This document shows positions 19,423 through 36,401 of a stretch of 64,000 nt of DNA, piece by piece (within the stretch, counting starts at the first letter, position 1; every line of letters begins with the position of its first letter). The position numbers and the translations under genes were made by a program. The notes under the pieces were generated by a model. That model searched no databases and was not told where the DNA came from. It worked only from the letters and a program-made list of their open reading frames with translations. This DNA comes from an uncultured Flavobacteriaceae bacterium (GTDB lineage Bacteria > Bacteroidota > Bacteroidia > Flavobacteriales > Flavobacteriaceae). The stretch lies in contig CANKZG010000001.1 of assembly GCA_947488435.1 (NCBI GenBank), positions 734,308 to 798,307 of the forward strand, written 5' to 3'.

Positions 19423-20433
19423 TCAGAAATATAACTGTGCTGCCTTCGAAAATTTTGTTGCCATCCGTTTACGCAAACGTTCAGGCTGCAATACCTCCAT
19501 GGCCTCTCCAAAACCTAAAATCAGACGTTCCAATTCAAAATTCAATTTCACTTTTATATTAATTTCAACACTTCCATCTTCATTTTCTTTTTCAATAATC
19601 TGTGAATGATGTATAGGTTTAGTCACGACATAAGGAGCATTGTATTTGTCGATCCATAATTTAATATTGGAAGCCCGTTCCCCTTGGTTCACGGTAACAC
19701 CCACAACATCCTTGTAAAAGGTATCTGCATCAAATTCATAATTTGAATAAGAAATAGCGAAATCATAGTCAATCGAAATGATTCGGTCAAGGGCAAGATT
19801 AACTATGCCTTTGTTCTTATTTCCCATTCCTATTAGAAACCATCGGTTGTTAAACTCCTTCAATAAGCAGGGATGGAAAGTAATTACATTGGCAGTAGCA
19901 GCTTTAAAAGACTTGTACTCCACCTTTAAAACCACTTTTTTCTGAATGGCTTGATAGAGTTCGTCAAGCCAATGTAATCCTTTTAGATTCTCGTTCTTAT
20001 CTAGATGAATAATAGATGACTGATGCGTCTTCTCAGTATATACTTTATCTTCTAATCGTTGAATAATTCCACCCAATTCTGAAAACAAAGAAAAGTCTTT
20101 AAACTGCTTTAGCATTTCTACAGTTTCAGAAAGTACATTCATGTCGTTTTCAGTTATGGGGATATCCGTAATGGAATAATCCTCATCTTCGTATTTGTAA
20201 TACTTTCTATCATAAGCAACAATTGGAGCGTTGTAACCTAACTTATCACTTCGCATCAACTGAATATCGAGTTGCACCGTCCGTTTGCTCACATTCACTT
20301 CCCTACCTTCGTATTCATATAAGGCATCTGAACAGGCTTCAATTAAATCATCTAAAGTCCATTGACGGTAGTTGTTTTGAAGGCATTTGTCAATAGTTTT
20401 ATATCGGATTAGGGCGTTTTTGTTGAGGGCCAT
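19423..20433 (-). CDS. HTH + WYL-domain transcriptional regulator (recalled by resemblance)
   Basis: 336 aa; N-terminus MALNKNALIRYKTIDKCLQN...WTLDDLIEACSDAL...VSKRTVQLDIQLMRS matches my recollection of the winged-HTH N-terminus of Bacteroidetes WYL-domain proteins, followed by a ligand-binding-like middle region; co-operonic with the HD protein (1-nt overlap). Confidence 0.55.
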   Translation of the reverse strand: MALNKNALIRYKTIDKCLQNNYRQWTLDDLIEACSDALYEYEGREVNVSKRTVQLDIQLMRSDKLGYNAPIVAYDRKYYKYEDEDYSITDIPITENDMNVLSETVEMLKQFKDFSLFSELGGIIQRLEDKVYTEKTHQSSIIHLDKNENLKGLHWLDELYQAIQKKVVLKVEYKSFKAATANVITFHPCLLKEFNNRWFLIGMGNKNKGIVNLALDRIISIDYDFAISYSNYEFDADTFYKDVVGVTVNQGERASNIKLWIDKYNAPYVVTKPIHHSQIIEKENEDGSVEINIKVKLNFELERLILGFGEAMEVLQPERLRKRMATKFSKAAQLYF

Positions 20434-21047
20434 TATAATGTATTTAGTTCATTGTACAAATTTGCTCTTGCCTGTTTTTCAAAAGTGGATTGAAAACCCT
20501 TAGTTTGATAAATTGTGTTCTTGTCTAAAAAGTGATGAAGTACTTTCTTTCGTCCTTTACGATACATAATACCGGGAATTTTAGCATACTCTTTTCTAAT
20601 CTTCAGAGCATAATCTTGGTATACCTCTTCGGACTGTCCTAAAATTGCTAAATCAAAGTCTATTAACAATTTCTCATCATTCGATTTGCCATTATGGTGT
20701 TTCGTACAAAGAATAAGTGCTTCAATTCGTTGAATTCCATCTACATCAAATCCAATATCTTGTAATACCTGATTGGCTTTTATTGCACTTTTCTCCTCGT
20801 TATCCTTTTTCCAAATACTATAGACAAAATCATGATAGTAAATAGCTAAAAGCATCTCTTCAGTATTTTCGATATCATCTTTGAACTTATCGAAATAGCC
20901 ATAGAGTTCGGTAAGGTGATCTAGATTGTGGTATTTTCGAAACTTTTGTCCATAAGCGCCAGCTAGTTCATTCCATAAAGCGGCAACTTCATTTTCCGTT
21001 GGTACATATTTAGAGAAAATCTTGGCGTGTCTTTCTTTTAAGTCCAT
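20433..21047 (-). CDS. HD-domain metal-dependent phosphohydrolase (putative RNA-end-processing enzyme)
   Basis: 204 aa; H...LDH...YYHD motif pattern (YHNLDHLTELY, AIYYHDFVY) consistent with an HD fold. Confidence 0.45.
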   Translation of the reverse strand: MDLKERHAKIFSKYVPTENEVAALWNELAGAYGQKFRKYHNLDHLTELYGYFDKFKDDIENTEEMLLAIYYHDFVYSIWKKDNEEKSAIKANQVLQDIGFDVDGIQRIEALILCTKHHNGKSNDEKLLIDFDLAILGQSEEVYQDYALKIRKEYAKIPGIMYRKGRKKVLHHFLDKNTIYQTKGFQSTFEKQARANLYNELNTL

Positions 21048-21083
21048 AGTGTATTTGACTTAAAATTACAAGAACTCAACTAA

Positions 21084-21104
21084 CTACGCAAAATAATTGC
21101 GTAG
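21084..21104. promoter_or_regulatory. perfect 7-7 palindrome CTACGCA-aaataat-TGCGTAG in the divergent HD-WYL / NTase-rtcB promoter region (copy 1 of 3)
   Basis: Read directly from the sequence; arms are exact reverse complements; see copies at 22930 and 30414. Confidence 0.45.
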
Positions 21105-21136
21105 TACATCATCAAATTTGTATCATAATTTTAGAA

Positions 21137-21874
21137 ATGATGAAAAGTAAACTTAAAAATCTAGCAACCGACAAGAAAGTAGACATACTGTTTGCTTGTG
21201 AATCTGGAAGTAGGGCCTGGGACTTTGCTTCCCCAGATAGTGATTTTGATGTTAGATTCGTATATACACATCCAATAGACTGGTATTTGTCAATCTCGGA
21301 AAAACAAGATACCATCGATATAATGGATGGTGATTTTGATGCAGTCGGTTGGGAACTCAGAAAGAAGCTACGCTTACTTAAAAAGTCGAACGTACCTGCA
21401 TTGGAGCATTTATTTTCACCTATAATTTATATTGAAGAAAGTTCATCCATTAAGGAACTGCGAGCGATAGCGAAAGATTGCTTTTCTCCTGTAGCTTGTA
21501 TGTATCACTATTTAAGTATGAGCAAAAAATATGAAGAAAAACTGACTGGTGAAACTGTAAAACTAAAGAGTTTGTTTTATGCATTGCGAACAGCTTTGGC
21601 GGGCAAGTGGATACTTGAACACAATACGATGCCACCTGTTGTTTTTAGCAAGATGTTATCTCTTATAAAAAGGGATGAGGCTGACGAAATAAGACACTTG
21701 ATGACTATAAAATCGGAGAATAACGAAAGTTATTTACATTCCAGAAATGAGAAAGTCGTAAACCTTATAGCAAGTGTTTTAGTTGTTAATGAAAAGTTTG
21801 CAAAATCGCTTTCGGGTGGGAAACCTGATACTGATAGAATAGATAGTTTTTTATATAACACTTTGACCAAATGA
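21137..21874 (+). CDS. DNA-polymerase-beta-superfamily nucleotidyltransferase, most likely the RtcB-associated PF10127 (RlaP-like) family
   Basis: 245 aa; GSRAWDFASPDSDFDVRF = G[SG]-x9-13-DxD nucleotidyltransferase motif. Confidence 0.6.
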   Translation: MMKSKLKNLATDKKVDILFACESGSRAWDFASPDSDFDVRFVYTHPIDWYLSISEKQDTIDIMDGDFDAVGWELRKKLRLLKKSNVPALEHLFSPIIYIEESSSIKELRAIAKDCFSPVACMYHYLSMSKKYEEKLTGETVKLKSLFYALRTALAGKWILEHNTMPPVVFSKMLSLIKRDEADEIRHLMTIKSENNESYLHSRNEKVVNLIASVLVVNEKFAKSLSGGKPDTDRIDSFLYNTLTK

Positions 21875-22923
21875 AAACAATAGAAGAACTAAAAGCTTCA
21901 GGAAATATCATATTTGAATGTATTAGCGGTAGTAGAGCATACGGACTCGCTACCGCTTCTTCTGATACCGATATTCGTGGAGTTTTTGTACTGCCAAAAG
22001 AAAAGTATTATTCATTGGAATATGTAGGTCAAATAAATAATGTCACGAACGATATTGTTTATTATGAACTCAAAAAGTTCATAGAACTTCTTTCAAAAAA
22101 CAACCCTAACATTCTTGAATTGTTAAGTGTTCCTGAAGACTGCATACTCTCAAAGCATCCGCTATTCGATAAAGTCAAGTCTGAGTACTTTCTTTCAAGA
22201 TTGTGCAAAGACACCTTTGCGAATTACGCTTTTACCCAAATAAAAAAGGCAAGAGGATTGAAGAAAAAAATAGTTAATCCTGTTGAAAAAGAACGAAAAT
22301 ATGTTACTGACTTTTGTTTTGTTCGAAAAGAAAAGGGCGCTATGCCTTTGAATACTTTTTTAGAAAATGAAGGTTTCGAAGTGGACCATTGTGGATTGGC
22401 TAAAATAAGTCACATGAAAGATTGTTACAATCTCTTCTACAACCCTTCTATGAAGTATAGTGGCGTTGCAAGAGAAAATGCGAATGAAGTCTGCCTTAGT
22501 TCTATTCCAAAATCGGAAGTGCCAGCGGCTATTTTATATTTCAATCGAGATGGTTATTCATCCTATTGTAAAAAGTATAAAGAGTATTGGTCTTGGGTAG
22601 AAAAGAGAAATGATGAACGTTACAAGAGTAATATCTCACATAGCAAGAACTACGATGCTAAAAACATGATGCACACTTTTCGTCTTTTACATATGGCCAA
22701 AGAAATAGGGGCTGATAATAAAATTATGGTAAAAAGACCAGACCGAGATTTTCTGCTAGCTGTAAAAAATGCTGAATTCGAATATGAAGAGTTGGTAGAA
22801 AGAGCTGAAAAGTTAAAATCAGAATTGGAGGTTACATATGAAAAAGCTGATTTAATGGAACGCCCAGACTTGGATATAATAAATGAACTATTGGTTGAAA
22901 TAAGAGCTCAATTCTACGAATAA
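21871..22923 (+). CDS. second PF10127-like nucleotidyltransferase (paralog; ATGA overlap with upstream gene)
   Basis: 350 aa; ISGSRAYGLATASSDTDIRGVFVLP motif; extra C-terminal helical domain. Confidence 0.6.
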   Translation: MKTIEELKASGNIIFECISGSRAYGLATASSDTDIRGVFVLPKEKYYSLEYVGQINNVTNDIVYYELKKFIELLSKNNPNILELLSVPEDCILSKHPLFDKVKSEYFLSRLCKDTFANYAFTQIKKARGLKKKIVNPVEKERKYVTDFCFVRKEKGAMPLNTFLENEGFEVDHCGLAKISHMKDCYNLFYNPSMKYSGVARENANEVCLSSIPKSEVPAAILYFNRDGYSSYCKKYKEYWSWVEKRNDERYKSNISHSKNYDAKNMMHTFRLLHMAKEIGADNKIMVKRPDRDFLLAVKNAEFEYEELVERAEKLKSELEVTYEKADLMERPDLDIINELLVEIRAQFYE

Positions 22924-22929
22924 ATTTTA

Positions 22930-22950
22930 CTACGCAAAATAATTGCGCAC
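22930..22950. promoter_or_regulatory. palindrome copy 2 (CTACGCA-aaataat-TGCGCAC, slightly degenerate) between NTase-2 and rtcB
   Basis: 19/21 identical to the copy at 21084. Confidence 0.35.
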
Positions 22951-23040
22951 ATGAGTCGCAAGTTTGTACCGGAATCATAAAGAAGCCGGTTCGCCGACTT
23001 CATGTAGTGCCCCGTCGAACGTTGGAGTCGGTGGGGCTAA

Positions 23041-24908
<1,868 letters not shown>

Positions 24909-25058
24909 AATTATTCTCATATTTGCAACTGGATAAATAAATATAACAAGAGAAAATAGTAAAATATGCCAGATTATTTAAATCACATACCGGACGCTAA
25001 GAAGCTAGGATTGCATCGAATTGATGGGTAGACACTATTGAGAAAACGATACATTACT

Positions 25059-25088
25059 AGAGCGTCCAAGAAATTAGGCGCTTTTTTT
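25059..25088 (+). terminator. rho-independent terminator after the rtcB operon
   Basis: AGAGCGTCC-aagaaatta-GGCGCT followed by TTTTTTTT; homologous to the terminator at 28484. Confidence 0.5.
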
Positions 25089-25264
25089 TATATACATTTT
25101 TTAGAGAATTCTCAAAATTCTAAAAGAATGCTATTTGAAAGCTAAGCATTTGAAAAACAGCAAATTGATGAATTATGCTGCTATCTGTTAAACAACGGAC
25201 CAGGATACTTATGTTTTGATTTTATTATAACTAATTGATAATCAGTAATTTAAATTATATTTTC

Positions 25265-25295
25265 TTGTGTAATCCAAAAATCCGTTTTAGCTTTG
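25265..25295 (+). promoter_or_regulatory. Bacteroidetes sigmaA-type promoter (-33 TTG ... -7 TAgcTTTG), cassette A
   Basis: TTG at 25265-25267, 20-nt spacer, TAGCTTTG at 25288-25295; the whole block is duplicated at 28701-28731. Confidence 0.45.
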
Positions 25296-25299
25296 CATC

Positions 25300-25474
25300 G
25301 CAATACAGCAACAAAATTTATTAACTGAAGTATATATGACTTTTTCAAACACATATCAGAATACACTAAAAGCACCAGGTGCTTTATTAGTGTCGCTTCA
25401 GGACTTCTATAATACATAAAGCTACTATAGTTAATGATAGAAAGTCCGAAGCCCTAAAGTTTCGGACTTTTTTA
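25300..25474 (+). ncRNA. candidate leader / small RNA A (~170 nt) ending in a terminator-like hairpin upstream of rtcB2-prfH
   Basis: Promoter-to-hairpin unit; hairpin AGTCCGAA-gccctaaagt-TTCGGACT + TTTTT at 25443-25474; no ORF; 5' ~80 nt homologous to cassette B. Confidence 0.35.
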
Positions 25475-25576
25475 TGCTCTAATTTTTAGTGACACATCTT
25501 TCCGAAACATTTTATCAAATCAAGTATTGCTCTTCCATTTTTGGAACAGCCGTACTATTCCTTAAAATGAAATCTC

Positions 25577-26968
25577 ATGGGAAAGAAATTAAGCGGAAAG
25601 GACCTAATCAAATTGGGTTTTCCAAAGAACAATAGTATCAATATTACATTAGGTCAAATCAATAGATACCATAAGCGAAAAAATAAAGAGCAGGTATTGA
25701 TGGAAGCTAAAAAAGTATTGTTGCATCCTGAGGACTATCAAGGTGATGGGGTTTGGGGTAAGATAGCAGAAAGCTTGTTAGATCCAGTTGTGGTCAAAAA
25801 ACAAGTGCTGAATTCGGCAAGAGCACCTTTCCAAATCTATGGCGAGAACGAAATAGAGGAGCAAGCAAAATACCAATTGTATGATGCTTTAAAACTTCCG
25901 ATTTCTGTTGCTGGGGCTTTGATGCCCGATGCCCATAGTGGTTATGGCTTGCCTATCGGGGGTGTTTTGGCTACTAAGAATGCGGTGATTCCATATGGAG
26001 TTGGTGTTGATATCGGTTGTCGCATGTGTTTGACTATTTATCCGATTCCGGTTTCTTACCTCAAAGGAAAGAAACATCAATTGGCAAATATGCTCTCGGA
26101 GCATACCAAGTTCGGAATGCGGGAAACCCATAAGATAAAGCATGACCACGAAATCTTTGAGCGCGATGAATTTAAAAATATTCCGCTGATAAAAAGATTA
26201 AAGGATAAAGCGTACAAGCAATTGGGAACCTCAGGTGGTGGAAATCACTTTGTAGAATTCGGAAAGGTCACTATTACAGATGACGAGAACGAATGGGGGT
26301 TGAAATTGGGCGAATATCTAGGTGTGCTTTCCCATAGTGGTTCAAGAGGATTAGGTGCAAACATTGCAAAACATTACACCTATTTGGCAACAAAGCAATG
26401 TCCGTTACCCAAACATGTGCAGCATTTGGCATGGTTGGATTTGAATACCCATGACGGACAAGAATATTGGTTAGCTATGAATCTAGCAGGTGATTATGCA
26501 AAAGCATGTCACGATGATATTCACGCAAGACTAGCGAAACTTTTGGGTACAAAACCAGTAGTTAAAATAGATAACCATCACAATTTTGCTTGGAAACAAG
26601 AGGTAAATGGTGCCGAGTGTATTGTGCATAGAAAGGGAGCAACTCCCGCCGCTAAAGGCGAGTTGGGAATTATTCCTGGGTCAATGACAGCATCGGGTTA
26701 CATCGTAAAAGGTTTGGGCAATACAGAGAGTTTAAACTCTGCTTCCCATGGTGCTGGACGGCTTTTTTCAAGACGAAAGTGTAAAGAAACGTTTACACGA
26801 AGCGAAATTAAAAAGCAACTAGACTCAAATGAGGTAACACTAATTGGTGGAGGAATTGACGAAGCACCCATGGCCTACAAAAACATTGAAAAGGTCATGG
26901 CAAATCAACAAGAATTGGTTGAAGTACTCGGAACCTTTACACCCAAAATAGTACGAATGGATAAATAA
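25577..26968 (+). CDS. rtcB: RtcB-family RNA ligase (paralog 2, RtcB2-like, paired with prfH)
   Basis: 463 aa; DAHSGYGLPIGG, GGGNHFVEFG, SHSGSRGLG, NHHNFAW, SHGAGRLFS. Confidence 0.85.
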   Translation: MGKKLSGKDLIKLGFPKNNSINITLGQINRYHKRKNKEQVLMEAKKVLLHPEDYQGDGVWGKIAESLLDPVVVKKQVLNSARAPFQIYGENEIEEQAKYQLYDALKLPISVAGALMPDAHSGYGLPIGGVLATKNAVIPYGVGVDIGCRMCLTIYPIPVSYLKGKKHQLANMLSEHTKFGMRETHKIKHDHEIFERDEFKNIPLIKRLKDKAYKQLGTSGGGNHFVEFGKVTITDDENEWGLKLGEYLGVLSHSGSRGLGANIAKHYTYLATKQCPLPKHVQHLAWLDLNTHDGQEYWLAMNLAGDYAKACHDDIHARLAKLLGTKPVVKIDNHHNFAWKQEVNGAECIVHRKGATPAAKGELGIIPGSMTASGYIVKGLGNTESLNSASHGAGRLFSRRKCKETFTRSEIKKQLDSNEVTLIGGGIDEAPMAYKNIEKVMANQQELVEVLGTFTPKIVRMDK

Positions 26969-27060
26969 CAGATAGTAGTTAGCGACGGTATTTATAAAGC
27001 ATATTGAAAACCTAAGATTATTGGAATACCAACGCTAGCTACTTCTTTTAAAGAAATAAA

Positions 27061-27753
27061 ATGGAAAAGATAATTCAAATAACAACAGGTAGAGGCCCAG
27101 CGGAATGTAGCTGGGTCGTTGCCAAAGTACTCAAGCGATTTTTGGAAGAGACCAAATCGAGAGGATTTAAACATAGTATCCTCCATCGAGAAACAGGAAG
27201 CCAAAACGGGACAGTACAATCGGTGACTATCCGCTTGACAGGAAAAAATATGGAAGCATTTTTAGCAACTTGGTTGGGTACTATTCAGTGGATAGGCGTT
27301 TCAACATTTCGAAAATACCATAAACGAAAGAATTGGTTTATCGGGGCTTTCGAATTGAAACAAACGCAAACTACGAAAGTGGATGAGCGAGATATTTCGT
27401 TTCAAACCATGCGGAGCACCGGTCCTGGTGGCCAGAATATCAACAAGATTAATTCTGCTGTTCGGGCAATTCATACCCCCACAGGAGTACAAGTAGTTGC
27501 GATGGATAGTCGTTCTCAACATCAAAACAAAAAACTAGCAATAGCTCGGTTAAAAGAAAAAGTAAATGAAGCTAACCTAGAGCAGTTAAAGGGAAGCATG
27601 ACAGATCAATGGGAGAACCATTTGAATCTGCAACGAGGAAATCCGGTCCGAGTTTTTAAGGGTACAGATTTCAAACATCAAAAAGTGGATAAAAGTTATA
27701 AACCAAAACGGCAAAAGCTAAAAAACGATTTCAAACATCAAAAATGGGACTGA
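27061..27753 (+). CDS. prfH: peptide chain release factor H (RF-H)
   Basis: 230 aa class-I release-factor GGQ-domain protein (STGPGGQNINK) lacking a full codon-recognition domain; immediately downstream of an RtcB paralog as in the E. coli rtcB2-prfH pair. Confidence 0.75.
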   Translation: MEKIIQITTGRGPAECSWVVAKVLKRFLEETKSRGFKHSILHRETGSQNGTVQSVTIRLTGKNMEAFLATWLGTIQWIGVSTFRKYHKRKNWFIGAFELKQTQTTKVDERDISFQTMRSTGPGGQNINKINSAVRAIHTPTGVQVVAMDSRSQHQNKKLAIARLKEKVNEANLEQLKGSMTDQWENHLNLQRGNPVRVFKGTDFKHQKVDKSYKPKRQKLKNDFKHQKWD

Positions 27754-28298
27754 CAATAGCCGATACTTATTACTTAAAGGCACGAGCAGCAATGGGAGGT
27801 TTTTGCCCTGATTGGGACGAAGTTTGTGAATCACTGAACTACGCCCTGTCTTACGATGAAAATCATTGTGCCTCCCTTTGTCTTTTAGGTAAAGTTTATG
27901 CAGGAAATTTGAATCAGTATACTGAAGCTTTCGATTGCTTTGACAAAGTAATTGCAATTGACAGTTACTATATGGATGTCTATCCTGCCTACGCAAAATA
28001 TCTTATTTGGGCCGATGAAATTGAAAGAGCAACTAAACTAATTGCTTTTGCTCTTACCATAAAAGGGATATCAAAAGGAAGTTTATTTTGGCTTTCCGCG
28101 TATGCGTCTGAAACCAAGGAAGCTTATAAAGATGCTCTGAAACATCTTAACAAAGCTAAGAAGTATTCCTATAATGACGATTACTTTTCTTTCATTGAAG
28201 ATGAAGAAAATAGAATTAAAAAGAAATTGAAATTGGATAAATCCAAAGTAAAAAAGAAGAAATCTTCATCTAAAAAAAAGAAGAAAAAGAATAAATAG
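27744..28298 (+). CDS. TPR-like protein with C-terminal poly-lysine tail
   Basis: 184 aa; helical repeats; ends KKKLKLDKSKVKKKKSSSKKKKKKNK encoded by A-rich tracts; overlaps prfH stop by 10 nt. Confidence 0.5.
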   Translation: MGLTIADTYYLKARAAMGGFCPDWDEVCESLNYALSYDENHCASLCLLGKVYAGNLNQYTEAFDCFDKVIAIDSYYMDVYPAYAKYLIWADEIERATKLIAFALTIKGISKGSLFWLSAYASETKEAYKDALKHLNKAKKYSYNDDYFSFIEDEENRIKKKLKLDKSKVKKKKSSSKKKKKKNK

Positions 28299-28483
28299 TA
28301 GTAACACAACGTTTAAAAATAACATCTTTGTAAAACAAATGACACCGAGAAAGTTACATATCATCCAACAAATAGAGCTTTGGCTCTGCGATTTTCGCTC
28401 AGAATATAGTGAGCGAAACGGGCGCTATGTGACTTTATCCAACAGTTGATTCTATGTAAATCACTTATTAAACGATAAAATGA

Positions 28484-28514
28484 AAGCGTCCAATTACAAT
28501 TGGGCGCTTTTTTT
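28484..28514 (+). terminator. rho-independent terminator after the prfH operon
   Basis: AAGCGTCCAATT-ac-AATTGGGCGCTT followed by TTTTTTT. Confidence 0.55.
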
Positions 28515-28700
28515 GTGGAATTTTTTAAAGTAAAATGCGAAAAGTAGTAAACGAATAAAATAGCGTAGTTGAAACAGAAAACAATTGGTAGACAGACAGT
28601 TGTAATAAATGTTTAAAGTCCGCAATATGACGGACAGGGATTCTATTGTTCATATTTTAATTTAACTATCTGATTATCAATAAATTAAATTAATTTTTTC

Positions 28701-28731
28701 TTGTATAATTTAAAAATCGTTTTCATCTTTG
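28701..28731 (+). promoter_or_regulatory. Bacteroidetes-type promoter, cassette B (-33 TTG ... CATCTTTG)
   Basis: Same spacing (20 nt) and flanks as cassette A; sits upstream of the tRNA array. Confidence 0.4.
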
Positions 28732-28737
28732 CACCGT

Positions 28738-28948
28738 CATAAATTATAAACCCATTACCAATGGAATCTTTAAAAAGACATATACAATTATTGGAACTAC
28801 ATCTCTGTTCGCCGAAATGGTTTGAACGGTTTTATAGTGATCAACTGTCCATTTGTAAACAAAGGAGAAATACGTGTATCATGTGTTGACGTCATAGACA
28901 CCATTCACATATGTACAGAGCATCTCCGATAAAGAGGTGCTTTTTTTA
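28738..28948 (+). ncRNA. candidate leader / small RNA B (~200 nt) ending in a hairpin + T7 tract 22 nt before the first tRNA
   Basis: Hairpin GCATCTC-cgataaa-GAGGTGC + TTTTTTT at 28920-28948; 5' part homologous to leader A. Confidence 0.35.
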
Positions 28949-28969
28949 TGCGATTATTTTTTGAAAAAA

Positions 28970-29057
28970 GGAAGAGCAAGCCAAAGGGCGGTGGCCACAC
29001 TCTTGAAAAGTGTTCGGAGTAACCAGTCTCGTGTGGGTTCGACTCCCACCTCTTCCG
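28970..29057 (+). tRNA. tRNA-Ser(TGA), class II
   Basis: Hand-folded: acceptor GGAAGAG/CTCTTCC, anticodon arm ACACT-CTTGAAA-AGTGT, long variable arm, T-arm GTGGG-TTCGACT-CCCAC, G73; 88 nt. Confidence 0.8.
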
Positions 29058-29062
29058 CAACT

Positions 29063-29149
29063 GGAGGGTAGGCAAATACTGGTTTGTTGCGCTCGCCTGC
29101 TAAGCAAGTCTACCATAAGGTAGTGAAGGTTCAATTCCTTTGCCCTCCG
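29063..29149 (+). tRNA. tRNA-Ser(GCT), class II; the only array member with an encoded CCA
   Basis: Acceptor GGAGGGT/GCCCTCC (one G-U), loop CTGCTAA, variable-arm hairpin CTACC-ataa-GGTAG, G73 then CCA; one C-A mismatch in anticodon stem. Confidence 0.7.
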
Positions 29150-29156
29150 CCAAATT

Positions 29157-29229
29157 GACAAGGTGGCTGAATAGTTAAGGCAATGGTCTGCAAAATCATT
29201 TTTTATGAGTTCGAATCTCATCCTTGTCT
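29157..29229 (+). tRNA. tRNA-Cys(GCA)
   Basis: 73 nt; acceptor GACAAGG/CCTTGTC, loop CTGCAAA, T-arm ATGAG-TTCGAAT-CTCAT, U73 (Cys identity). Confidence 0.8.
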
Positions 29230-29240
29230 CTAAATATTAT

Positions 29241-29323
29241 GGAAGTATTGAGCAATTGGCTGGCTCGCTTGACTGTAAATCAGGTTCAGAAATGACATGT
29301 AGGTTCGAGTCCTGCTGCTTCCA
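29241..29323 (+). tRNA. tRNA-Tyr(GTA), class II
   Basis: Acceptor GGAAGTA/TGCTTCC, anticodon arm CTTGA-CTGTAAA-TCAGG, long variable arm, A73. Confidence 0.75.
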
Positions 29324-29327
29324 CAAC

Positions 29328-29398
29328 GCGTCTGTGGTGTAATGGTAGCATTTGGGTCTCCAAAACCTATGATTGAGGTTCGAATCCTTAAGGACGCG
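29328..29398 (+). tRNA. tRNA-Trp(CCA)
   Basis: Anticodon arm TGGGT-CTCCAAA-ACCTA as in E. coli tRNA-Trp, T-arm TGAGG-TTCGAAT-CCTTA, G73; one mismatch at the acceptor-stem base. Confidence 0.65.
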
Positions 29399-29401
29399 CA
29401 A

Positions 29402-29474
29402 AGTACCGTAGTTCAAAGGCTAGAGCGCCCGACTGTCTATCGGGAAGGTACGGGTTCGAGTCCCGTCGGTACTG
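29402..29474 (+). tRNA. tRNA-Asp(GTC) with unusual U37
   Basis: Acceptor AGTACCG/CGGTACT, anticodon arm CCCGA-CTGTCTA-TCGGG, T-arm ACGGG-TTCGAGT-CCCGT resembles E. coli tRNA-Asp; G73. Confidence 0.65.
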
Positions 29475-29479
29475 CGAAA

Positions 29480-29552
29480 CTGGGAAGATAACGGTGGTTA
29501 GTTTACCCGCTTTGGAAGCGGGAGGTCGCAAGTTCGAATCTTGCTTCCCAGA
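29480..29552 (+). tRNA. tRNA-Pro(TGG)
   Basis: Acceptor CTGGGAA/TTCCCAG, anticodon arm CCCGC-TTTGGAA-GCGGG, T-arm GCAAG-TTCGAAT-CTTGC, A73; only 5 nt after tRNA-Asp. Confidence 0.8.
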
Positions 29553-29614
29553 CGACTTAGTCAAATCAAGTTTACTTGAATTTGATTAGCAAGGAGTAGT
29601 TGTAAGAAAGACGA

Positions 29615-29636
29615 AGTCAATCTTGCTTCTCAGACT
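29615..29636 (+). pseudogene. 3' remnant of tRNA-Pro (T-loop 3' half + acceptor 3' strand), direct repeat of 29531-29552
   Basis: AGTCAATCTTGCTTCTCAGAC vs GTTCGAATCTTGCTTCCCAGAC (17/20). Confidence 0.5.
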
Positions 29637-29639
29637 TTT

Positions 29640-29712
29640 GCTCTGTTCGTATAATGGTTAAGTACGCCTGACTTTCTATCAGGAAATAGGGGTTCGATTC
29701 CCCTACAGAGTA
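29640..29712 (+). tRNA. tRNA-Glu(TTC) with unusual U37
   Basis: Acceptor GCTCTGT/ACAGAGT (G1-U72), D-stem CGTA/TACG, anticodon arm CCTGA-CTTTCTA-TCAGG, T-arm AGGGG-TTCGATT-CCCCT. Confidence 0.65.
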
Positions 29713-29717
29713 CAAAA

Positions 29718-29790
29718 TGAGGTATAACTCAGTTGGTAGAGTACCGTGCTTTTAACACGGGAGTCTTAGGTTCGAGTCCTAATGCCTCAA
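29718..29790 (+). tRNA. tRNA-Lys(TTT)
   Basis: U1-A72 acceptor TGAGGTA/TGCCTCA, D-arm ACTC-AGTTGGTA-GAGT, anticodon arm CCGTG-CTTTTAA-CACGG, A73. Confidence 0.75.
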
Positions 29791-29795
29791 CAATT

Positions 29796-29868
29796 GCAGG
29801 GATGGCGAAATGGCAAACGCAGCTGGTTTAGAACCAGTACTCTGAGAGTTCGAATCTCTCTCCCTGTA
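29796..29868 (+). tRNA. type-I tRNA with Leu anticodon TAG (Leu-like D-arm, variable arm only 5 nt)
   Basis: Acceptor GCAGGGA/TCCCTGT, D-arm GCG-AAATGGCAAA-CGC (Leu-like), anticodon arm GCTGG-TTTAGAA-CCAGT, variable ACTCT, T-arm GAGAG-TTCGAAT-CTCTC, A73. Confidence 0.5.
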
Positions 29869-29875
29869 CTATGAT

Positions 29876-29949
29876 GCCCCACTAGCCCAACCGGCAGAGG
29901 CAAAGGACTTAAAATCCTTAAAGTCCAAGTTCGAATCTTGGGTGGGGTA
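29876..29949 (+). tRNA. type-I tRNA with Leu anticodon TAA (variable arm 5 nt)
   Basis: Anticodon arm AAGGA-CTTAAAA-TCCTT nearly identical to E. coli tRNA-Leu(UAA) arm, but variable region only AAAGT; T-arm CCAAG-TTCGAAT-CTTGG, A73. Confidence 0.5.
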
Positions 29950-29954
29950 CAAAT

Positions 29955-30079
29955 AAGCTTATGGTGTAATGGATAGCACGCAGGATTTAACTCACGCTCT
30001 TTTTACTTGAAATAAGGAGTTCGTGAATGCAGAAAAGCATTTCTAACCCTGAGGTATGAGTTCAAATCTTGTTAGGCTT
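29955..30079 (+). ncRNA. tRNA-like element (125 nt): canonical acceptor/D-arm/T-arm with a ~60-nt insertion in the anticodon region
   Basis: 5' AAGCTTA-TG-GTG..CAC D-arm (11-mer TGGTGTAATGG shared with tRNA-Trp); 3' ATGAG-TTCAAAT-CTTGT T-arm + TAGGCTT acceptor strand pairing 7/7 (one G-U) with the 5' end; split CAGG/CCTG anticodon stem. Confidence 0.3.
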
Positions 30080-30085
30080 GCAAAT

Positions 30086-30157
30086 AGACCCGTGATGTAA
30101 CGGTTAGCATACAAGGTTTTGATCCTTGTTGTAAAGGTTCAAATCCTTTCGGGTCTT
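30086..30157 (+). tRNA. tRNA-Gln(TTG)
   Basis: Acceptor AGACCCG/CGGGTCT 7/7, D-stem ATGT/GCAT, anticodon arm CAAGG-TTTTGAT-CCTTG, T-arm AAAGG-TTCAAAT-CCTTT. Confidence 0.7.
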
Positions 30158-30162
30158 CAAAT

Positions 30163-30236
30163 GGTGTCTCTAGCTTATTTTGGTAAAGCGTCCCACTGTG
30201 AATGGGAAGAACAGGGTTCGAGTCCCCGAGTACACC
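30163..30236 (+). tRNA. tRNA-His(GTG) with encoded G-1 pairing C73
   Basis: Anticodon arm TCCCA-CTGTGAA-TGGGA, D-stem GCTT/AAGC, extra 5' G opposite C73 (His hallmark); two mismatches near the acceptor-stem base. Confidence 0.6.
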
Positions 30237-30242
30237 CAAAAG

Positions 30243-30315
30243 GGAACAGTAGCAAAGATGATCAATGCGGCGGATTGAAGATCCGACGATACAGGTTCGA
30301 GTCCTGTCTGTTCCA
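30243..30315 (+). tRNA. tRNA-Phe(GAA)
   Basis: Acceptor GGAACAG/CTGTTCC 7/7, anticodon arm GCGGA-TTGAAGA-TCCGA, T-arm ACAGG-TTCGAGT-CCTGT, A73. Confidence 0.7.
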
Positions 30316-30319
30316 CAAC

Positions 30320-30392
30320 AGGAGTATAGTTCAATTGGACAGAACGCTGGGCTACGAACCTAGAAATGCGAGTTCGAGTCTTGCTACTCCTA
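30320..30392 (+). tRNA. tRNA-Arg(ACG)
   Basis: Acceptor AGGAGTA/TACTCCT 7/7, D-stem GTTC/GAAC, anticodon arm CTGGG-CTACGAA-CCTAG, T-arm GCGAG-TTCGAGT-CTTGC, A73. Confidence 0.8.
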
Positions 30393-30413
30393 CTAAAACA
30401 AGAGAAATTTTAG

Positions 30414-30434
30414 CTACGCATAATCATTGCGTAA
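30414..30434. promoter_or_regulatory. palindrome copy 3 (CTACGCA-taatcat-TGCGTAA) inside the tRNA array
   Basis: 6-bp arms TACGCA/TGCGTA with 7-nt A/T spacer, same architecture as copies at 21084 and 22930. Confidence 0.35.
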
Positions 30435-30498
30435 TTATGGTTCAATTTTGCCTTGTAATAAAAGCAGTCCTTATAGGGAAAACGGGGCTGTAATAGTT

Positions 30499-30530
30499 CC
30501 CTGCAGCAAATTTAATGCTGCAGGGTTTTG
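30499..30530 (+). terminator. strong rho-independent terminator closing the first tRNA block
   Basis: 9-bp GC-rich stem CCCTGCAGC-aaatttaat-GCTGCAGGG followed by TTTTG. Confidence 0.7.
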
Positions 30531-30536
30531 ATAAAT

Positions 30537-30740
30537 ACCTCTTTAGCTCAAAGGGAAGAGCTGTGGTAAAGGATATTGATCGTAGCCACGGAGTGATTGG
30601 AAGACGTTGTTAGCGGCGTGCCTGCTAATGAATAGAATTTGCAGAAGCACCGAAATGAACAAGATTCAAAATAGGGAAGCGCATTTATAGCCAATCTGTT
30701 CGTTTCGACGAAAGTGCCAGTTCGAATCTGGCAAGAGGTA
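30537..30740 (+). ncRNA. tRNA-like element (204 nt): acceptor stem 7/7, D-arm and T-arm intact, anticodon arm replaced by ~130 nt of structured sequence
   Basis: 5' ACCTCTT-TA-GCTC-aaagggaa-GAGC; 3' GCCAG-TTCGAAT-CTGGC-AAGAGGT-A; interior has several hairpins incl. a UUCG tetraloop (TTCGT-ttcg-ACGAA) but no anticodon stem-loop. Confidence 0.3.
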
Positions 30741-30750
30741 CAAAGTTCAT

Positions 30751-30780
30751 TGAAAAAAAAATTCTGCCTAGGCAGAATTA
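30751..30780 (-). terminator. rho-independent terminator for minus-strand transcripts
   Basis: Plus strand reads AAAAAAAA-ATTCTGCC-tagg-GGCAGAAT, i.e. hairpin followed by U8 on the minus strand. Confidence 0.5.
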
Positions 30781-30920
30781 ACAATATCAAGCTGGTCTTG
30801 TTGGGTGTTTCTGTATAGCACTATTGTGTGAAGCGTTGCCATAGGGTATAATGTTTTCATGTACAACTTGACTTGATGGTTTCGATTGTTCGCCAAAAAA
30901 CGATCACCACTCTGTGAGTC

Positions 30921-31012
30921 ATGGGTTCGAATCCCATCAGTCCCAAATGGGACTGTAGTTCAGTTAGGTTAGAACAACAGACGGATGCGCAGGTTCGACT
31001 CCTGCCAGCGGC
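30921..31012 (+). pseudogene. tRNA debris: T-arm + 3' acceptor (ATGGG-TTCGAAT-CCCAT-CAGTCCC-A) immediately followed by its matching 5' acceptor + D-arm (GGGACTG-TA-GTTC...GAAC) and a second T-arm lacking an anticodon arm
   Basis: Hand-folded; looks like a permuted or tandem-decayed tRNA pair; no complete cloverleaf. Confidence 0.4.
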
Positions 31013-31023
31013 CACTTTTTTTA

Positions 31024-31067
31024 GGCCCTGTAGCTCAGTTGGCTAGAGCACTACACTCATAATGTAG
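31024..31067 (+). pseudogene. 5' two-thirds of a tRNA-Met/Ile2(CAT): acceptor 5' strand, D-arm, anticodon arm; T-arm and 3' end missing
   Basis: GGCCCTG-TA-GCTC-agttggcta-GAGC-A-CTACA-CTCATAA-TGTAG, then no TTCGA T-loop and no CAGGGCC partner. Confidence 0.45.
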
Positions 31068-31450
31068 GTTTCTAAAGCTGACCATCTTTTAAAACTGGTC
31101 TCCAAGCCCTGTTAGGCTTAAAATGACAAAAACCGTAGGTATAAGTCAGTTGGTTTTTCTTCGGATAAATCAACAGTCTTGAAACTACTTTGAAATAGTG
31201 AATTTTTGATGCGAAAGGCAATTTCTTTTTGAATATCCTTCCCTCGGAAAAACCAATAAAAAGTATTGGCAACGTCGACCGAAGCATACCAAAAAAACAA
31301 ATCGTAACGAGCTTCGAAAACCAATATTTCCGTAACGGATAGATGAGTTATAGTTGCGGTTTTTTAAAAGAGAAAAACAAATTAATACTAAATAAGAAAT
31401 CGTTTAACCCGTTCGTCCGTCACTAGACTGGCGGACACAAATTTTAAGTA

Positions 31451-32551
31451 ATGAAAAGAGTAAGAATCAATGCAGGAAGAGTAGGTTTGGTCTTCAAAAG
31501 AGGCGATTACCAAAGAGTAATTACCCAAGGTACACACTGGGTAAGCTTCAGAAATATGGTTAAGGTATATGACCTTACCAAGGCCTTTGTTGCCCCTATA
31601 GCATTAGAAATCTTGCTACAGGACCAGGGCTTGGAAGCTATGTTGCATATCATCGAAGTTAAGGATGCTGAATTGGCTCTAGTTTCTGAAAACGGAAACT
31701 TGAAACAAGTCCTTACTGCTGGTAAGTACGCTTTCTGGAAAGGTCTGATAAACTTCGAGTTCGTTATGGCGGACTTGAGTAAGATCTATATCACTGAAGC
31801 TATCAGCAAAGCAATGTTGAGCCATCCTCAGTTGCGAGCGTATGTTCGTACTTTGGAAGTTGCGGCTTACGAAAAGGCTGTCCTCTTGGTTGATGATGTT
31901 TATGTCAAAACGCTGGAAAGTGGTACCTACCATTTCTGGAAGAACGACATCTCTATCAAAATTGCCAGAGCGGACATGCGTCAATTGCAATTGGAGATTT
32001 CTGGTCAAGAATTGTTGACCAAAGACAAGGCTGCTATTCGTATCAATTTCTATACACAGTATAAAGTTATAGATATCGAGAAGGCTTTGCTAGGCAACAA
32101 AGACTATGAAAAGCAGTTGTATATCGCAATGCAATTAGTATTACGGACCTATATTGGCACCTATACCTTGGATGAGCTTCTAGAACGAAAAGAAAGCATC
32201 GCTGAAGCTGTGTTTGGGGATATCAAAACTGCCGCTACCCAATTGGGTGTTGCAATTTTGAGTTGTGGTATTCGTGATGTTATCCTGACCGGTGAAATGA
32301 AAGATATTATGAACCAGGTTTTGGTTGCTCAAAAGAGAGCTCAAGCGAATATCATTACCCGACGTGAAGAAACTGCGTCTACCAGAAGCTTGCTGAACAC
32401 CGCGAAGTTGATGGAAGACAACGAAATGCTCTACAAACTGAAGGAAATGGAATACGTTGAAAAGATCGCCGAAAAAATCGGTGAGATTACCGTCTCTGGC
32501 AATGGAGGTATGGTAAAACAATTGAAAGAGATTTTCTCAGTCAATAAGTAA
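31451..32551 (+). CDS. SPFH/band-7 (slipin-like) domain protein with extra N-terminal domain
   Basis: 366 aa; C-terminal half has SPFH-like pattern (…VLVAQKRAQANIITRREETAS…). Confidence 0.55.
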   Translation: MKRVRINAGRVGLVFKRGDYQRVITQGTHWVSFRNMVKVYDLTKAFVAPIALEILLQDQGLEAMLHIIEVKDAELALVSENGNLKQVLTAGKYAFWKGLINFEFVMADLSKIYITEAISKAMLSHPQLRAYVRTLEVAAYEKAVLLVDDVYVKTLESGTYHFWKNDISIKIARADMRQLQLEISGQELLTKDKAAIRINFYTQYKVIDIEKALLGNKDYEKQLYIAMQLVLRTYIGTYTLDELLERKESIAEAVFGDIKTAATQLGVAILSCGIRDVILTGEMKDIMNQVLVAQKRAQANIITRREETASTRSLLNTAKLMEDNEMLYKLKEMEYVEKIAEKIGEITVSGNGGMVKQLKEIFSVNK

Positions 32552-32599: not shown

Positions 32600-33352
32600 T
32601 TATCGATGCATCCGATCAAGTATTTCCAGCACTTCTGCCTTTTTTCGCACCGAAACGGGAACATGTCCCCCATTTTTAAGCAATAAATAGCCTCCATCTG
32701 TTTTTACATAGGCACTAATGCATTGTAAATTAACTAAATGGCTTTGATGAATACGTAAAAACTCATATTCTTTTAATAACTCTGCGAAGTATTTTAATGT
32801 TTTTGTTACAAAGATTTTTTGTTTATCCTGTAAATGAAATATGGTGTTGTTGCTATCAGATTCACAACGCACAATATCATCCAAGTTTACAATAATGATC
32901 TTGTCCAGTGTATGTAAAGAAATTTTATCGGGCTTTTCTTCAGGTGTAGATAAGGTGTCTTTTAAGATAGCCAAACGTTCTTCCCCAGGTTGTAATTGTT
33001 CTTTAGCTCTGTCAATCGCTTGGGCTAATTCTTCATGAGTATACGGTTTTAAAACATAGTCGATAGCGGCAAATTTAAAGGCCCGAATTGCAAACTCATC
33101 ACTAGCTGTTACAAAAATAATCTTTGATTGTAAATTAGGAACAATCTCTAAAATATCGAAACTAGTTCCATCTCCCAGCATAATGTCTAAAAACAAAATG
33201 TCCGGTTGTTGTTTTCGAAGCAATTTTGAAGCTTCCACAACACTTTGTGCCGTTGCAACAACCTCAATATCAGGATGATTCTGGGCTAAATCGTTCTTCA
33301 AAAGCTGCAAAGCATCGGGAAGGTCTTCTACTAATATTGCTGTTAACTTCAT
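32600..33352 (-). CDS. LytTR-family two-component response regulator
   Basis: 250 aa; CheY-like receiver (DILFLDIMLGDGTSFD) + C-terminal LytTR DNA-binding domain. Confidence 0.85.
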   Translation of the reverse strand: MKLTAILVEDLPDALQLLKNDLAQNHPDIEVVATAQSVVEASKLLRKQQPDILFLDIMLGDGTSFDILEIVPNLQSKIIFVTASDEFAIRAFKFAAIDYVLKPYTHEELAQAIDRAKEQLQPGEERLAILKDTLSTPEEKPDKISLHTLDKIIIVNLDDIVRCESDSNNTIFHLQDKQKIFVTKTLKYFAELLKEYEFLRIHQSHLVNLQCISAYVKTDGGYLLLKNGGHVPVSVRKKAEVLEILDRMHR

Positions 33353-33356
33353 GCTA

Positions 33357-36300: not shown

Positions 36301-36401
36301 GCCCTTAATTGGTTGTTTTGTGCCTTTGTTATATTTGGAGAAACCCAGATCAGTATACCCAGGAATAAAAGAAGAATTCGATACACTTGCTGTTGTTTCA
36401 T
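33357..36401 (-). CDS. sensor histidine kinase with periplasmic two-component-regulator beta-propeller / Y_Y_Y domain
   Basis: 1014 aa; signal peptide, repeated propeller blades, one TM, then LytS-type His kinase + HATPase (…NPHFIFNVLN…). Confidence 0.8.
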   Translation of the reverse strand: MKQQQVYRILLLFLGILIWVSPNITKAQNNQLRAYTLTDGLPQSQVYDIIEDEIGYLWLGTQGGGITRFDGVDFEVFNERNGLLSNYIHALHFSNDSLFIGTKKGLSIKHKNGFSNLQGPQINAIYKNNTKYYLATSQGIFLFEKTGNLRRILLHEEIDNGRINALIFENNWIWIATDTGLWRASVEAQEVDEVYKLGAGNFTALTLNKDHLLAATFTDGIWVLNKKLGRQELLLREPLRINNLAILKDELWVSTDNDGIVILDVKSYEEKKRLDNSAGLGVQHIRKVITDTRTNVWIATSGGGFYKYFENNFKHYDKDTGLKGDRVYAVHATATDIWTSNSEAGLLKIDSLGLHSVEIDNYFEGVKIKTITHDAKGDIWAGTDGRGILYRETKIVDSIVISDESPEAIPLDTIQKTIAIDHIIDTAKGLPSNWIRKIHPIDSVMWAATYASGIVKFTYDTSKGALKVLKTYDKKQGLEDLLIREMKTDAYGRLWYATQKGHLGYIQNDKLTDLGKVLDQEIPIGTLLFHHENLYLGTSGSGIWWSPINDLKRFGKLNGNKSPYSENVYQLIFDADENLWVGTERGVDKIILSQENTIIDVFHFGENDGFLGIETCLNAVDMDADGNLWFGAIYGLTQHQASETVKATVKPKLYFEQIEVDYKTVDSLHLKKWTNSSKILQLKPNQTQITFRYRAIDLDHPKDIEYRFKLNDNEWSPWSEINQQNFAGLTYGAHSFTAQARNFRWEESNSIQFNFFIETPLYEKSWFQASVLGAIGLMLLLFTWRYIRRVKRKNKRAQERLQLENHLLALEQKALRLQMNPHFIFNVLNGIKAMGSGNPLKMNSTINSFATLLRETLYNSRKDTITLDQEIKTLKHYIAVEQLMATRPFTYDMQVETAMDSEEILIPPMLIQPFVENAIRHGIGKGPREGVLKLIFSTTEKFLHCEVIDNGVGIFESQKEKPKTDHQSMALEVTQERLRSISGKNAIVIEELATENGSIAGTKVTFKIPLQTDY

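Follow-up and report, generated by a model that had tools for sequence, protein, structure and literature searches.

Candidate leader-peptide attenuators behind a duplicated promoter/operator block at an rtcB2-prfH operon and a tRNA array of Flavobacteriaceae

In the classical transcription attenuators, such as trpL, hisL, pheL, thrL and leuL, the leader transcript carries a short open reading frame (ORF), pairing of segments 1:2 and 3:4 competes with pairing of segments 2:3, and the terminator lies about 20–30 nt after the stop codon, at which a ribosome masks segment 2. The ermC, vmlR and bmrCD leaders are stall-sensing upstream ORFs (uORFs) that respond to translation inhibitors. A further stall-sensing uORF is that of E. 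coli topAI (PMC12121999). In Anabaena, the repressor TrcR controls the trn tRNA L-array and rtcB, which have promoter repeats in common and are switched on under translational stress (PMC8421152, PMC10272220), while in E. coli and Salmonella the rtcBA genes are controlled by the sigma-54 activator RtcR and are induced by damage to the translation apparatus (PMC10272220). Ribosomes cleaved by toxins of the colicin E3 type are rescued and re-ligated by RtcB2 and PrfH (PMC9304027, PMC9223846, PMC13166195). Here we describe two related regulatory cassettes, A (25059–25474) and B (28484–28948), which precede an rtcB2-prfH operon and an array of 15 tRNA genes, respectively, in a 64,000-nt stretch of DNA from an uncultured Flavobacteriaceae bacterium (contig CANKZG010000001.1, positions 734,308–798,307; 37% G+C; hereafter the window).

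Our analysis indicates that cassettes A and B are probably two copies of one module, each consisting of an insulating terminator, an operator/promoter block of about 107 bp and a ribosome-mediated transcription attenuator. For comparison we used 80 fetched loci encoding close relatives of the window's RtcB2, drawn from Flavobacteriia, Sphingobacteriia and Saprospiria (81 sequences with the window); the nearest relatives among them belong to Maribacter and other Flavobacteriaceae, and in three loci (L001–L003) RtcB2 is 97% identical to that of the window. Counts by lineage refer to representatives, 17 for leader A (less than 60% identical to one another) and 11 for leader B, which share ancestry and are not fully independent.

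The duplication is real, but comparison of the two sequences confines it to the terminator and the promoter/operator block. As the initial annotation had proposed, the cassettes resemble each other well beyond the background of AT-rich DNA: a collinear local alignment of 25040–25580 with 28465–28975, which starts slightly ahead of the upstream terminator and extends as far as the −7 box, scores 100, compared with 23.6 ± 2.7 for shuffled sequences. Within it the core block (25195–25300 and 28630–28736, both on the + strand) reaches 76.6% identity over 107 nt (E = 2e-16). The terminator pieces (25044–25088 and 28470–28514) are 76.6% identical over 47 nt in blastn; their homology, also proposed earlier, is marginal when they are taken alone (E = 0.02), but they are collinear with the block, and other genera have them at both positions. 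Cassette A opens with the intrinsic terminator of the upstream RtcB1-orf170 unit (25061–25090, +; stem AGCGTCC/GGCGCT, T8), and its homologue in cassette B is the terminator of the rtcB2-prfH-TPR operon (28485–28515, +; 11-bp stem AGCGTCCAATT/AATTGGGCGCT, T7). By the same comparison the transcribed halves are not homologous. Similarity had been claimed for the first ~80 transcribed nt, yet 25300–25480 against 28736–28955 scores 20 (shuffled 18.4 ± 2.7, with 142 of 500 shuffles equal), and the pair offered as an example, AAACACATATCAG... and AAAGACATATAC..., comes from different reading frames of the two leader ORFs. The peptide families encoded by these ORFs proved equally unrelated when homology between them was considered (hhalign probability 0.07%). 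What the two units have in common is thus a shared promoter and operator followed by a leader that ends in a terminator; the proposal of a shared leader does not extend to the leader sequences themselves.

Each block begins with a distal conserved motif (ACGGACCAGG, 25195–25204, + strand, in A; ACGGACAGGG, 28630–28639, in B), continues with an imperfect dyad and ends in a promoter. The 9-bp near-palindromes noted previously are both present, the second starting one base further on than first reported (28671, not 28670), and they form the centres of dyads of about 27–36 bp: TGATAATCA (25236–25244) within 25222–25257, and TGATTATCA (28671–28679) within 28658–28693, with 80.6% identity between the first dyad and the inverse of the second. 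The Bacteroidota housekeeping promoter has the consensus −33 TTG / −7 TAnnTTTG with a spacer of about 19–21 nt. Promoters of this type, with the identical 20-nt spacing already recognised in the initial annotation, lie at 25265–25267 (TTG) and 25288–25295 (TAGCTTTG) in A, and at 28701–28703 (TTG) and 28724–28731 (CATCTTTG, one mismatch to the consensus, at the first position) in B. Transcription is predicted to start near 25300 and 28737.

The block is widespread at equivalent positions. A profile search (nhmmer) recovered 97 copies, every one on the + strand; 68 of the 81 sequences have the block, with one or two copies per locus (two in the window). The first copy lies upstream of the rtcB2 operon and the second 3–6 kb downstream, 205–400 nt before the tRNA array, and 29 sequences have the block before both units. 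Arrays of up to 19 tRNAs follow block B and its leader in 31 related loci. The conservation of the block-plus-leader arrangement at both positions in many genera supports the proposed co-regulation of rtcB2-prfH and the tRNA array. The 97-copy consensus comprises a distal ACGGACAGG, a dyad of about 27 bp around TTGATaATCAA, a −33 TTG and a −7 nAnnTTTGCA, so that both promoter motifs are kept, and conservation is highest in the dyad operator and in the distal ACGGAC motif. With the dyad placed upstream of the −33 element, an activator would fit at least as well as a repressor. Two candidates for the protein that binds it, both named in the initial annotation, were considered and set aside, as the present data link neither to the block: the WYL gene is found within 8 kb in only 25 of 80 loci and always beside RtcB1, and the Crp/Fnr gene lies 12 kb off among ordinary chromosomal genes. 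A search of metagenomes for further regulon members with the pattern ACGGACNNGN{30,34}TGATNATCA was likewise abandoned; all 120 of 120 loci were chance matches and none matched the block or leader profiles, the pattern being too loose.

Each leader contains a conserved short ORF, which was absent from the initial annotation. Leader A RNA was detected in 75 of the 81 sequences, across three classes of Bacteroidota, and folds far better than its shuffles (z = −5.2). In the window its ORF occupies 25336–25419 (+; 27 codons and TAA, encoding MTFSNTYQNTLKAPGALLVSLQDFYNT), and an ORF of 24–28 codons is kept in 70 leaders, including those of Flavobacterium, Sphingobacterium and Saprospiraceae, with an ATG start (GTG in one lineage). 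This frame is open in 17 of 17 representatives, compared with 3 and 4 of 17 for the other frames (shuffle P = 0.058 per lineage). The encoded peptides are almost unrelated between lineages (MTFSNTYQNTLKAPGALLVSLQDFYNT, MFVKYTSELALTANGFAEASLRALSLQ and MSCFTINQNSAAPADSMLRGLHFS are examples), and in one locus (L034) segment 2, described below, is in a different reading frame; since this locus nevertheless keeps a 26-codon ORF, the extent of translation rather than the peptide seems to matter. Within the ORF a conserved hairpin (25364–25393, +; core GCACC-A-GGTGC), visible both as a self-inverted match and in the minimum free energy structure, shows covariation (AU:20 CG:12 GC:4 at one pair), and distant lineages carry other stem sequences at the same place; it may act as a pause or spacing element.

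Around this ORF lie the segments of two alternative structures at nearly fixed distances. Segment 1 (CTGAAGT, 25325–25331, +; consensus A[AC][CT]GAAG or CAAAG), located 5–8 nt before the leader ATG, can pair with segment 2 as an anti-antiterminator. Segment 2 (GCTTCAGGACTTC, 25395–25407, +; codons L-Q-D-F; consensus GCTTCrGGACTTC), 21 nt before the stop codon (24 or 15 nt in a few loci), has two alternative partners, segment 1 and the terminator's 5′ arm. The terminator itself (25441–25473, +; −18.1 kcal/mol) consists of segment 3 (AAAGTCCGAAGC, 25441–25452), segment 4 (GTTTCGGACTTT, 25459–25470) and a T-run; it starts 19–27 nt after the stop codon, and its CCGAAG core, conserved across the phylum, lies 22–31 nt after it. 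We counted pairs in an ungapped alignment of 47 distinct leaders anchored on the segments. In the terminated state (1:2 plus 3:4), 94.5% of cells are paired and 42 cells carry double changes, compared with 10.3 ± 2.6 after shuffling, a value that none of 500 shuffles reached. Helix 1 (1:2) has 93% of cells paired and compensatory changes in 4 of its 7 pairs (CG/AU, CG/UA and GC/AU), as in the replacement of CGAAG:CTTCG by CAAAG:CTTTG, while helix 2, the terminator, is 95.4% paired. The mutually exclusive antiterminator (2:3) is 89.9% paired, with 16 double-change cells compared with 3.5 ± 1.6 (0 of 500 shuffles) and no more than 55% pairing in slid controls, and it carries lineage-specific extensions (GGACTT/AAGTCC, GGATA/TATCC, GGGCTTTAT/ATAAACCC and GTGCTTTATC/GATAAAAGCCC). 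Its duplex averages −17.4 kcal/mol (−19.0 in the window), which is comparable to the terminators (−10 to −19). A comparison of cognate with non-cognate partners in the variable part of the 2:3 pairing gave a modest signal (mean z = −1.96, mean rank 0.37).

We then simulated the passage of a ribosome by masking a 28-nt footprint at successive positions of the peptidyl (P) site codon and calculating the probability of the terminator helix from the partition function. In the 69 leader A sequences simulated, the terminator helix has a median probability of 0.71 when the RNA is free, 0.03–0.14 with the P site at codons 1–4, and 0.95–0.97 once the P site is within the last ten codons. A trp-type attenuator in which an early stall leads to read-through should behave in this way, and we take the result as supportive only, because equilibrium folding ignores co-transcriptional kinetics.

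Leader B, unrelated in sequence, likewise has a short ORF ahead of a terminator. Its ORF (28761–28889, +; 42 codons and TGA, encoding MESLKRHIQLLELHLCSPKWFERFYSDQLSICKQRRNTCIMC) is represented by ORFs of 37–44 codons in 11 of 11 representatives, with the other frames open in 0 of 11 (shuffle P = 0.024 per lineage). A candidate segment 1 (28846–28855) and a purine-rich segment 2 (AGGAGA..., 28863–28882) both lie inside the ORF, and the terminator (28917–28947, +; AGAGCATCTC/GAGGTGCTTT, T-run) ends 22 nt upstream of the first tRNA. The hairpins with T-tracts that were said to close both cassettes are found, at 25441–25473 and 28917–28947, as are the short distances reported downstream of them (103 nt from leader A to the rtcB2 ATG, and the 22 nt of leader B). 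Segment 2 lies 18–38 nt before the stop codon and is complementary to the 5′ arm of the terminator, which starts 21–29 nt after the stop, and the two change together between lineages (AGGAGA/CATCTCC, AGGAAGG/GCCTTCC, GGGTGTCT/AGACGCCC and GGGAG/CTCCC); in one further locus (L064) the pair ATGGAG/CTCCAT was read by eye, and RNAduplex chose a different partner. The duplex between ORF end and terminator averages −10.5 kcal/mol for cognate and −7.7 kcal/mol for non-cognate partners, and none of 20000 permutations was as low. In the simulation for the window, terminator probability falls to 0–0.3 with the P site at codons 26–30.

As a separate observation on this pairing, segment 2 (28863–28868) reads AAGGAG(A/G) in several lineages, including L057, L058 and L068, and so resembles a Shine-Dalgarno sequence, while its partner (28920–28927) reads CA(C/T)CTCC(TT), like the 3′ end of 16S rRNA. 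The likeness does not hold in Aquimarina (GGGTGTCT/AGACGCCC), and G+C-rich pairing could account for it.

The + strand from 25296 to 31481 is free of TAnnTTTG motifs, and between terminator B and the first tRNA there are just 22 nt; downstream expression should therefore need read-through of the leader terminators. The ~100 nt that follow terminator A are not conserved. Leader A and rtcB2 are separated by an extra gene in 33 of 75 loci, in all of which the leader is still at the 5′ end of the operon. The window lacks the extra gene. In 29 loci (for instance L016:7327–8004) it encodes a 225-aa basic protein rich in lysine and arginine, with the motifs PIRHGWFKE and RIKFTRAYVTHSKRIDP and no match in NCBIfam; in three loci (e.g. 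L044:6592–7956) it encodes a protein of ~455 aa.

Searches of family databases returned no known element at either leader. Neither 25059–25474 nor 28484–28948 contains an Rfam 15 family at gathering score, whether riboswitch, T-box, curated leader or small RNA (sRNA), and at E ≤ 5 only noise appeared (SQ1002, E = 1.7; MicC, 0.89; Phe_leader, 0.98, on the upstream terminator); in NCBIfam no family matches either leader peptide. The riboswitch-like leader envisaged in the initial annotation thus has no counterpart among riboswitches or other known RNA families. Because each leader holds a conserved ORF whose 3′ end can pair with the 5′ arm of its terminator, we regard the leaders as leader-peptide attenuators rather than as riboswitch-like elements or plain sRNAs. 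Nor do they appear to be amino-acid-specific: codon runs that would single out one amino acid are missing from both, and the peptides vary, while the architecture is otherwise that of such an attenuator. Attenuator control of rtcB2-prfH or of a tRNA operon was not found in Rfam, NCBIfam or the literature searched. In that literature, word searches of two RtcB2-PrfH papers turned up nothing about regulation of the native operon, full-text queries that paired RtcB with attenuation or leader-peptide terms gave, among the matches listed, none that mentions RtcB, the only control found described for an accessory tRNA array was the cyanobacterial TrcR repressor, and a word search of the Anabaena paper (PMC8421152) for attenuator, leader or terminator found no mention.

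Under the mechanism that we propose, transcription would begin near 25300 (A) or 28737 (B) and a ribosome would load on the short leader ORF. If it translated at normal speed to the stop codon, it would cover segment 2 (in leader A 10–22 nt before the stop), the 3:4 terminator would form and transcription would end at 25473 or 28947; if no ribosome loaded, segments 1 and 2 would pair and the terminator would again form. A ribosome that stalled early would instead mask segment 1 and leave segment 2 free, so that the 2:3 antiterminator could form and polymerase could read through into rtcB2-prfH-TPR or the tRNA array. The effective stall site would be the start codon or the first few codons in leader A, and a few codons upstream of segment 2 in leader B. 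The shared dyad operator upstream of the −33 element would add a second input, through a DNA-binding protein.

Several points weigh against this mechanism, or at least against the strength with which it can be argued. That a stall should give read-through is argued from the trp attenuator by analogy, and the simulated effect is weaker for leader A of the window than for its relatives (0.97 to 0.6). In leader B, the 1:2 pairing is represented only by a local hairpin candidate in the window (28846–28868), segment 1 not being defined comparatively, and the simulated dip appears in about 5 of 14 lineages (the window, L017, L032, L040 and L043), the rest being flat. The ORFs were selected within length windows, which introduces some bias into the ORF statistics. 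The alignment anchors (AAG, CTTYR, CCGAAG and YYGG) were chosen by us and lie inside the helices, so they inflate the percentages of paired cells, though not the covarying positions outside them; many core helix pairs are also invariant and hence uninformative either way.

One alternative is that the leaders are independent small genes, encoding proteins of 27 and 42 aa or sRNAs of ~170 and ~210 nt, with rtcB2-prfH and the tRNAs expressed from other signals. Each unit does have a complete promoter and a strong terminator, and a terminated attenuator RNA can act in trans, as described for rnTrpL, the trpL attenuator RNA of Sinorhizobium (PMC7968998), so a second role of this kind is possible. 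As the whole explanation, we consider it improbable: no −7 motif follows either terminator, terminator B leaves only 22 nt before the tRNA, and the region between terminator A and rtcB2 is not conserved; the peptides match nothing in NCBIfam, are poorly conserved and are frame-shifted in one lineage; and the covarying complementarity between ORF 3′ end and terminator 5′ arm would be purposeless in a stand-alone gene. We give a slightly better, still low, chance to control by a ligand or protein, the leader acting as a riboswitch or as an antiterminator that depends on a protein (the hairpin or CCGAAG might bind a repair protein or damaged RNA, for example), with the ORFs incidental. The covariation of the internal hairpin, the very strong conservation of CCGAAG/CTTCGG and the folding of leader A (z = −5.2 relative to shuffles) would all fit such an element, but an incidental ORF would not explain why only the leader frame is kept open, within a narrow length range, in 17 and 11 lineages, or why ATG and stop codon stand at fixed distances from the pairing segments; T-box and riboswitch families of Rfam are also unmatched, and leaders A and B share no common aptamer sequence or structure.

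About equally unlikely is regulation at the shared operator only, by an activator or repressor, with the leader terminators serving as constitutive and partly leaky dampers. The dyad and distal ACGGAC are the best-conserved parts of the block, and in Anabaena a tRNA array and rtcB are under purely promoter control by TrcR (PMC10272220). Operator control would leave the conserved ORFs, the 1:2 pairing and the covarying antiterminator unexplained, and is compatible with attenuation as an additional layer. That the similarity of the cassettes is a product of chance in AT-rich intergenic DNA can be practically dismissed: it would account for transcribed halves that are no more alike than shuffles, but the alignment score (100 against 23.6 ± 2.7), the block itself (E = 2e-16) and the conservation of both copies in dozens of genomes refute it for the part from terminator to promoter. 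Read-through governed by a ribosome on the leader ORF is the explanation that we retain.

As to what would stall that ribosome, both leaders most likely respond to a general failure of translation, for instance after cleavage of ribosomes in the decoding centre or loss of tRNAs to ribotoxins, as they contain no single-codon run and their peptides drift freely. Damage to the translation apparatus is a likely form of this signal, given the lack of a codon run and the nature of the targets, a ribosome repair module and a spare tRNA set. A more specific proposal, which we put forward tentatively and consider doubtful as it stands, is that the ribosome itself is the damage sensor and that a stall on each leader ORF induces the matching remedy: decoding-centre damage by an rRNA nuclease, or tRNA loss to an anticodon nuclease, would stall the leader ribosome and switch on RtcB2-PrfH or the spare tRNAs. 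In a sharper version, leader B would sample the codons that the array's tRNAs read. Of the leader B residues in the window, 85% have a tRNA in the array, compared with 60% for background proteins (Maribacter lineage), and B leaders across lineages have an excess of Cys, Tyr, Arg, Gln, His and Ser and a deficit of Ala, Gly, Val and Thr, in parallel with the tRNA species that the arrays carry; as counterpoints, other lineages are at background (L040, 0.72 vs 0.77), and Ile and Asn are enriched without matching tRNAs.

The genes under discussion form part of an RNA-repair island. It opens with a WYL-WCX regulator gene (19423–20433, −), divergent from two RlaP nucleotidyltransferase genes (21137–22923), the first RtcB ligase gene, RtcB1 (23053–24441), and an ORF for a 170-aa protein without assigned family, after which cassette A begins; the promoter block is absent from this second, upstream RNA-repair unit (19423–24908) in the search with the block profile. 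The operon behind cassette A (25577–28298) comprises rtcB2 (25577–26968, +; Pfam RtcB), prfH (27061–27753, +; Pfam RF-1, and NCBIfam TIGR03072 release_prfH at 229 bits with a cutoff of 167) and the gene of a 184-aa TPR protein (27744–28298, +), and the three genes are conserved together in 75–80 of the 80 loci. Behind cassette B, ARAGORN and Rfam identify the 15 tRNA genes at 28970–30393 (+; Ser ×2, Cys, Tyr, Trp, Asp, Pro, Glu, Lys, Leu ×2, Gln, His, Phe and Arg), and a terminator scan places the array's own terminator at 30499–30525. An SPFH protein gene closes the island, and ordinary chromosomal genes lie farther out.

Array content varies by strain through gene loss, down to 1–3 tRNAs. 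The window's array has gaps at 29554–29639 (86 nt) and 29951–30085 (135 nt) and lacks the tRNA-Arg(tct) that stands between Leu(taa) and Gln in two close relatives (L001 and L004). Second blocks without tRNAs, in L035, L039 and L048, are weak or degenerate remnants; the one in L048, an Aquimarina-like locus, is followed by a B-type leader ORF and a terminator (11286–11560) with no tRNA within the fetched sequence, and looks like a relic following loss of the array. Between the array terminator and the SPFH gene, a chain of tRNA-like modules occupies 30875–31110 (+), with a T-arm, then an acceptor-like stem and a D-arm and no anticodon arm; they score 38.4 and 28.9 bits as YrlA (Y RNA-like), below the gathering score of 69, and 29 and 28.3 bits as tRNA, at the borderline of its gathering score of 29. 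No Ro/TROVE protein was found among the minority of window ORFs scanned with Pfam. Flanking the island at 32600–36401 (−) are a LytTR response regulator, with a weak, below-threshold match to the ‘cyclic-phosphate processing receiver’ domain cREC_REC (E = 0.001), and a 1014-aa histidine kinase; this pair stands beside the island in only one related locus.

Outside the Bacteroidota loci, the 190-nt region upstream of the intact rtcB2-prfH operon in E. coli ABU 83972 contains a 15-codon ORF (L082:835–882; MTNPLSMTLCRPFQD) preceded by a consensus AAGGAGG Shine-Dalgarno sequence, with its start region within a predicted hairpin and no terminator evident in those 190 nt. A leader ORF may thus be recurrent in prfH operons.

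Taken together, these results suggest that repair of the translation machinery may be triggered by a stalled ribosome acting as the sensor. The pair of leader-ORF attenuators offers a concrete mechanism that is cheap to test, in which translation failure would be read directly by the ribosome, and it would join ribosome repair and tRNA replacement in one regulon across Bacteroidota. Leader A, present in 75 of 81 sequences, is a well-defined new family of cis-regulatory RNA, and the orphan operator gives a bait for its binding protein; the leaders could also provide a ready-made reporter for ribotoxins or translation damage. If the sensor proposal held, with leader B sampling the codons of its array, this would be the first tRNA operon with a leader-peptide attenuator, and a sensor of ribotoxin attack coupled to translation.

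How the locus relates to described systems can now be set out. The leader and operator are control elements upstream of the RtcB2-PrfH enzymes and not part of them; the window's PrfH (230 aa, passing TIGR03072) is within the size range of the ‘PrfH-CT’ subfamily of Flavobacteriia (RtcB2-PrfH module: PMC9304027, PMC9223846, PMC12829566). With RtcR-controlled rtcBA the locus shares an RNA-repair ligase operon, here presumably also damage-inducible, but there the sensor is a protein acting at a sigma-54 promoter, and we saw no RtcR or sigma-54 element here. The leaders agree with classical attenuators in their leader ORF, alternative pairings and terminator distance; unlike them, they have no single-amino-acid codon run and no conserved peptide, segment 1 of leader A precedes the start codon instead of being part of the ORF, and the targets are a ribosome-repair and rescue operon and a tRNA array, not biosynthetic genes. 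Stall-sensing uORFs follow the same logic, in which a uORF acts as a general sensor of stalling and induces translation-stress genes, but they answer antibiotics and many need a specific nascent peptide, whereas the leader peptides here drift and the targets point to RNA damage (16S rRNA cleavage and tRNA loss). The closest biological analogue is the TrcR regulon of Anabaena, where a silent accessory tRNA array and an RtcB gene also share a cis element under the same back-up logic. The system described here is an analogue and not a member of that regulon, no search having been made for a TrcR homologue: direct repeats overlapping the −10 box and start site and bound by the ribbon-helix-helix protein TrcR are replaced by a dyad upstream of −33 and a distal ACGGAC, each unit adds a leader-ORF attenuator, and the ligase is the prfH-linked RtcB2.

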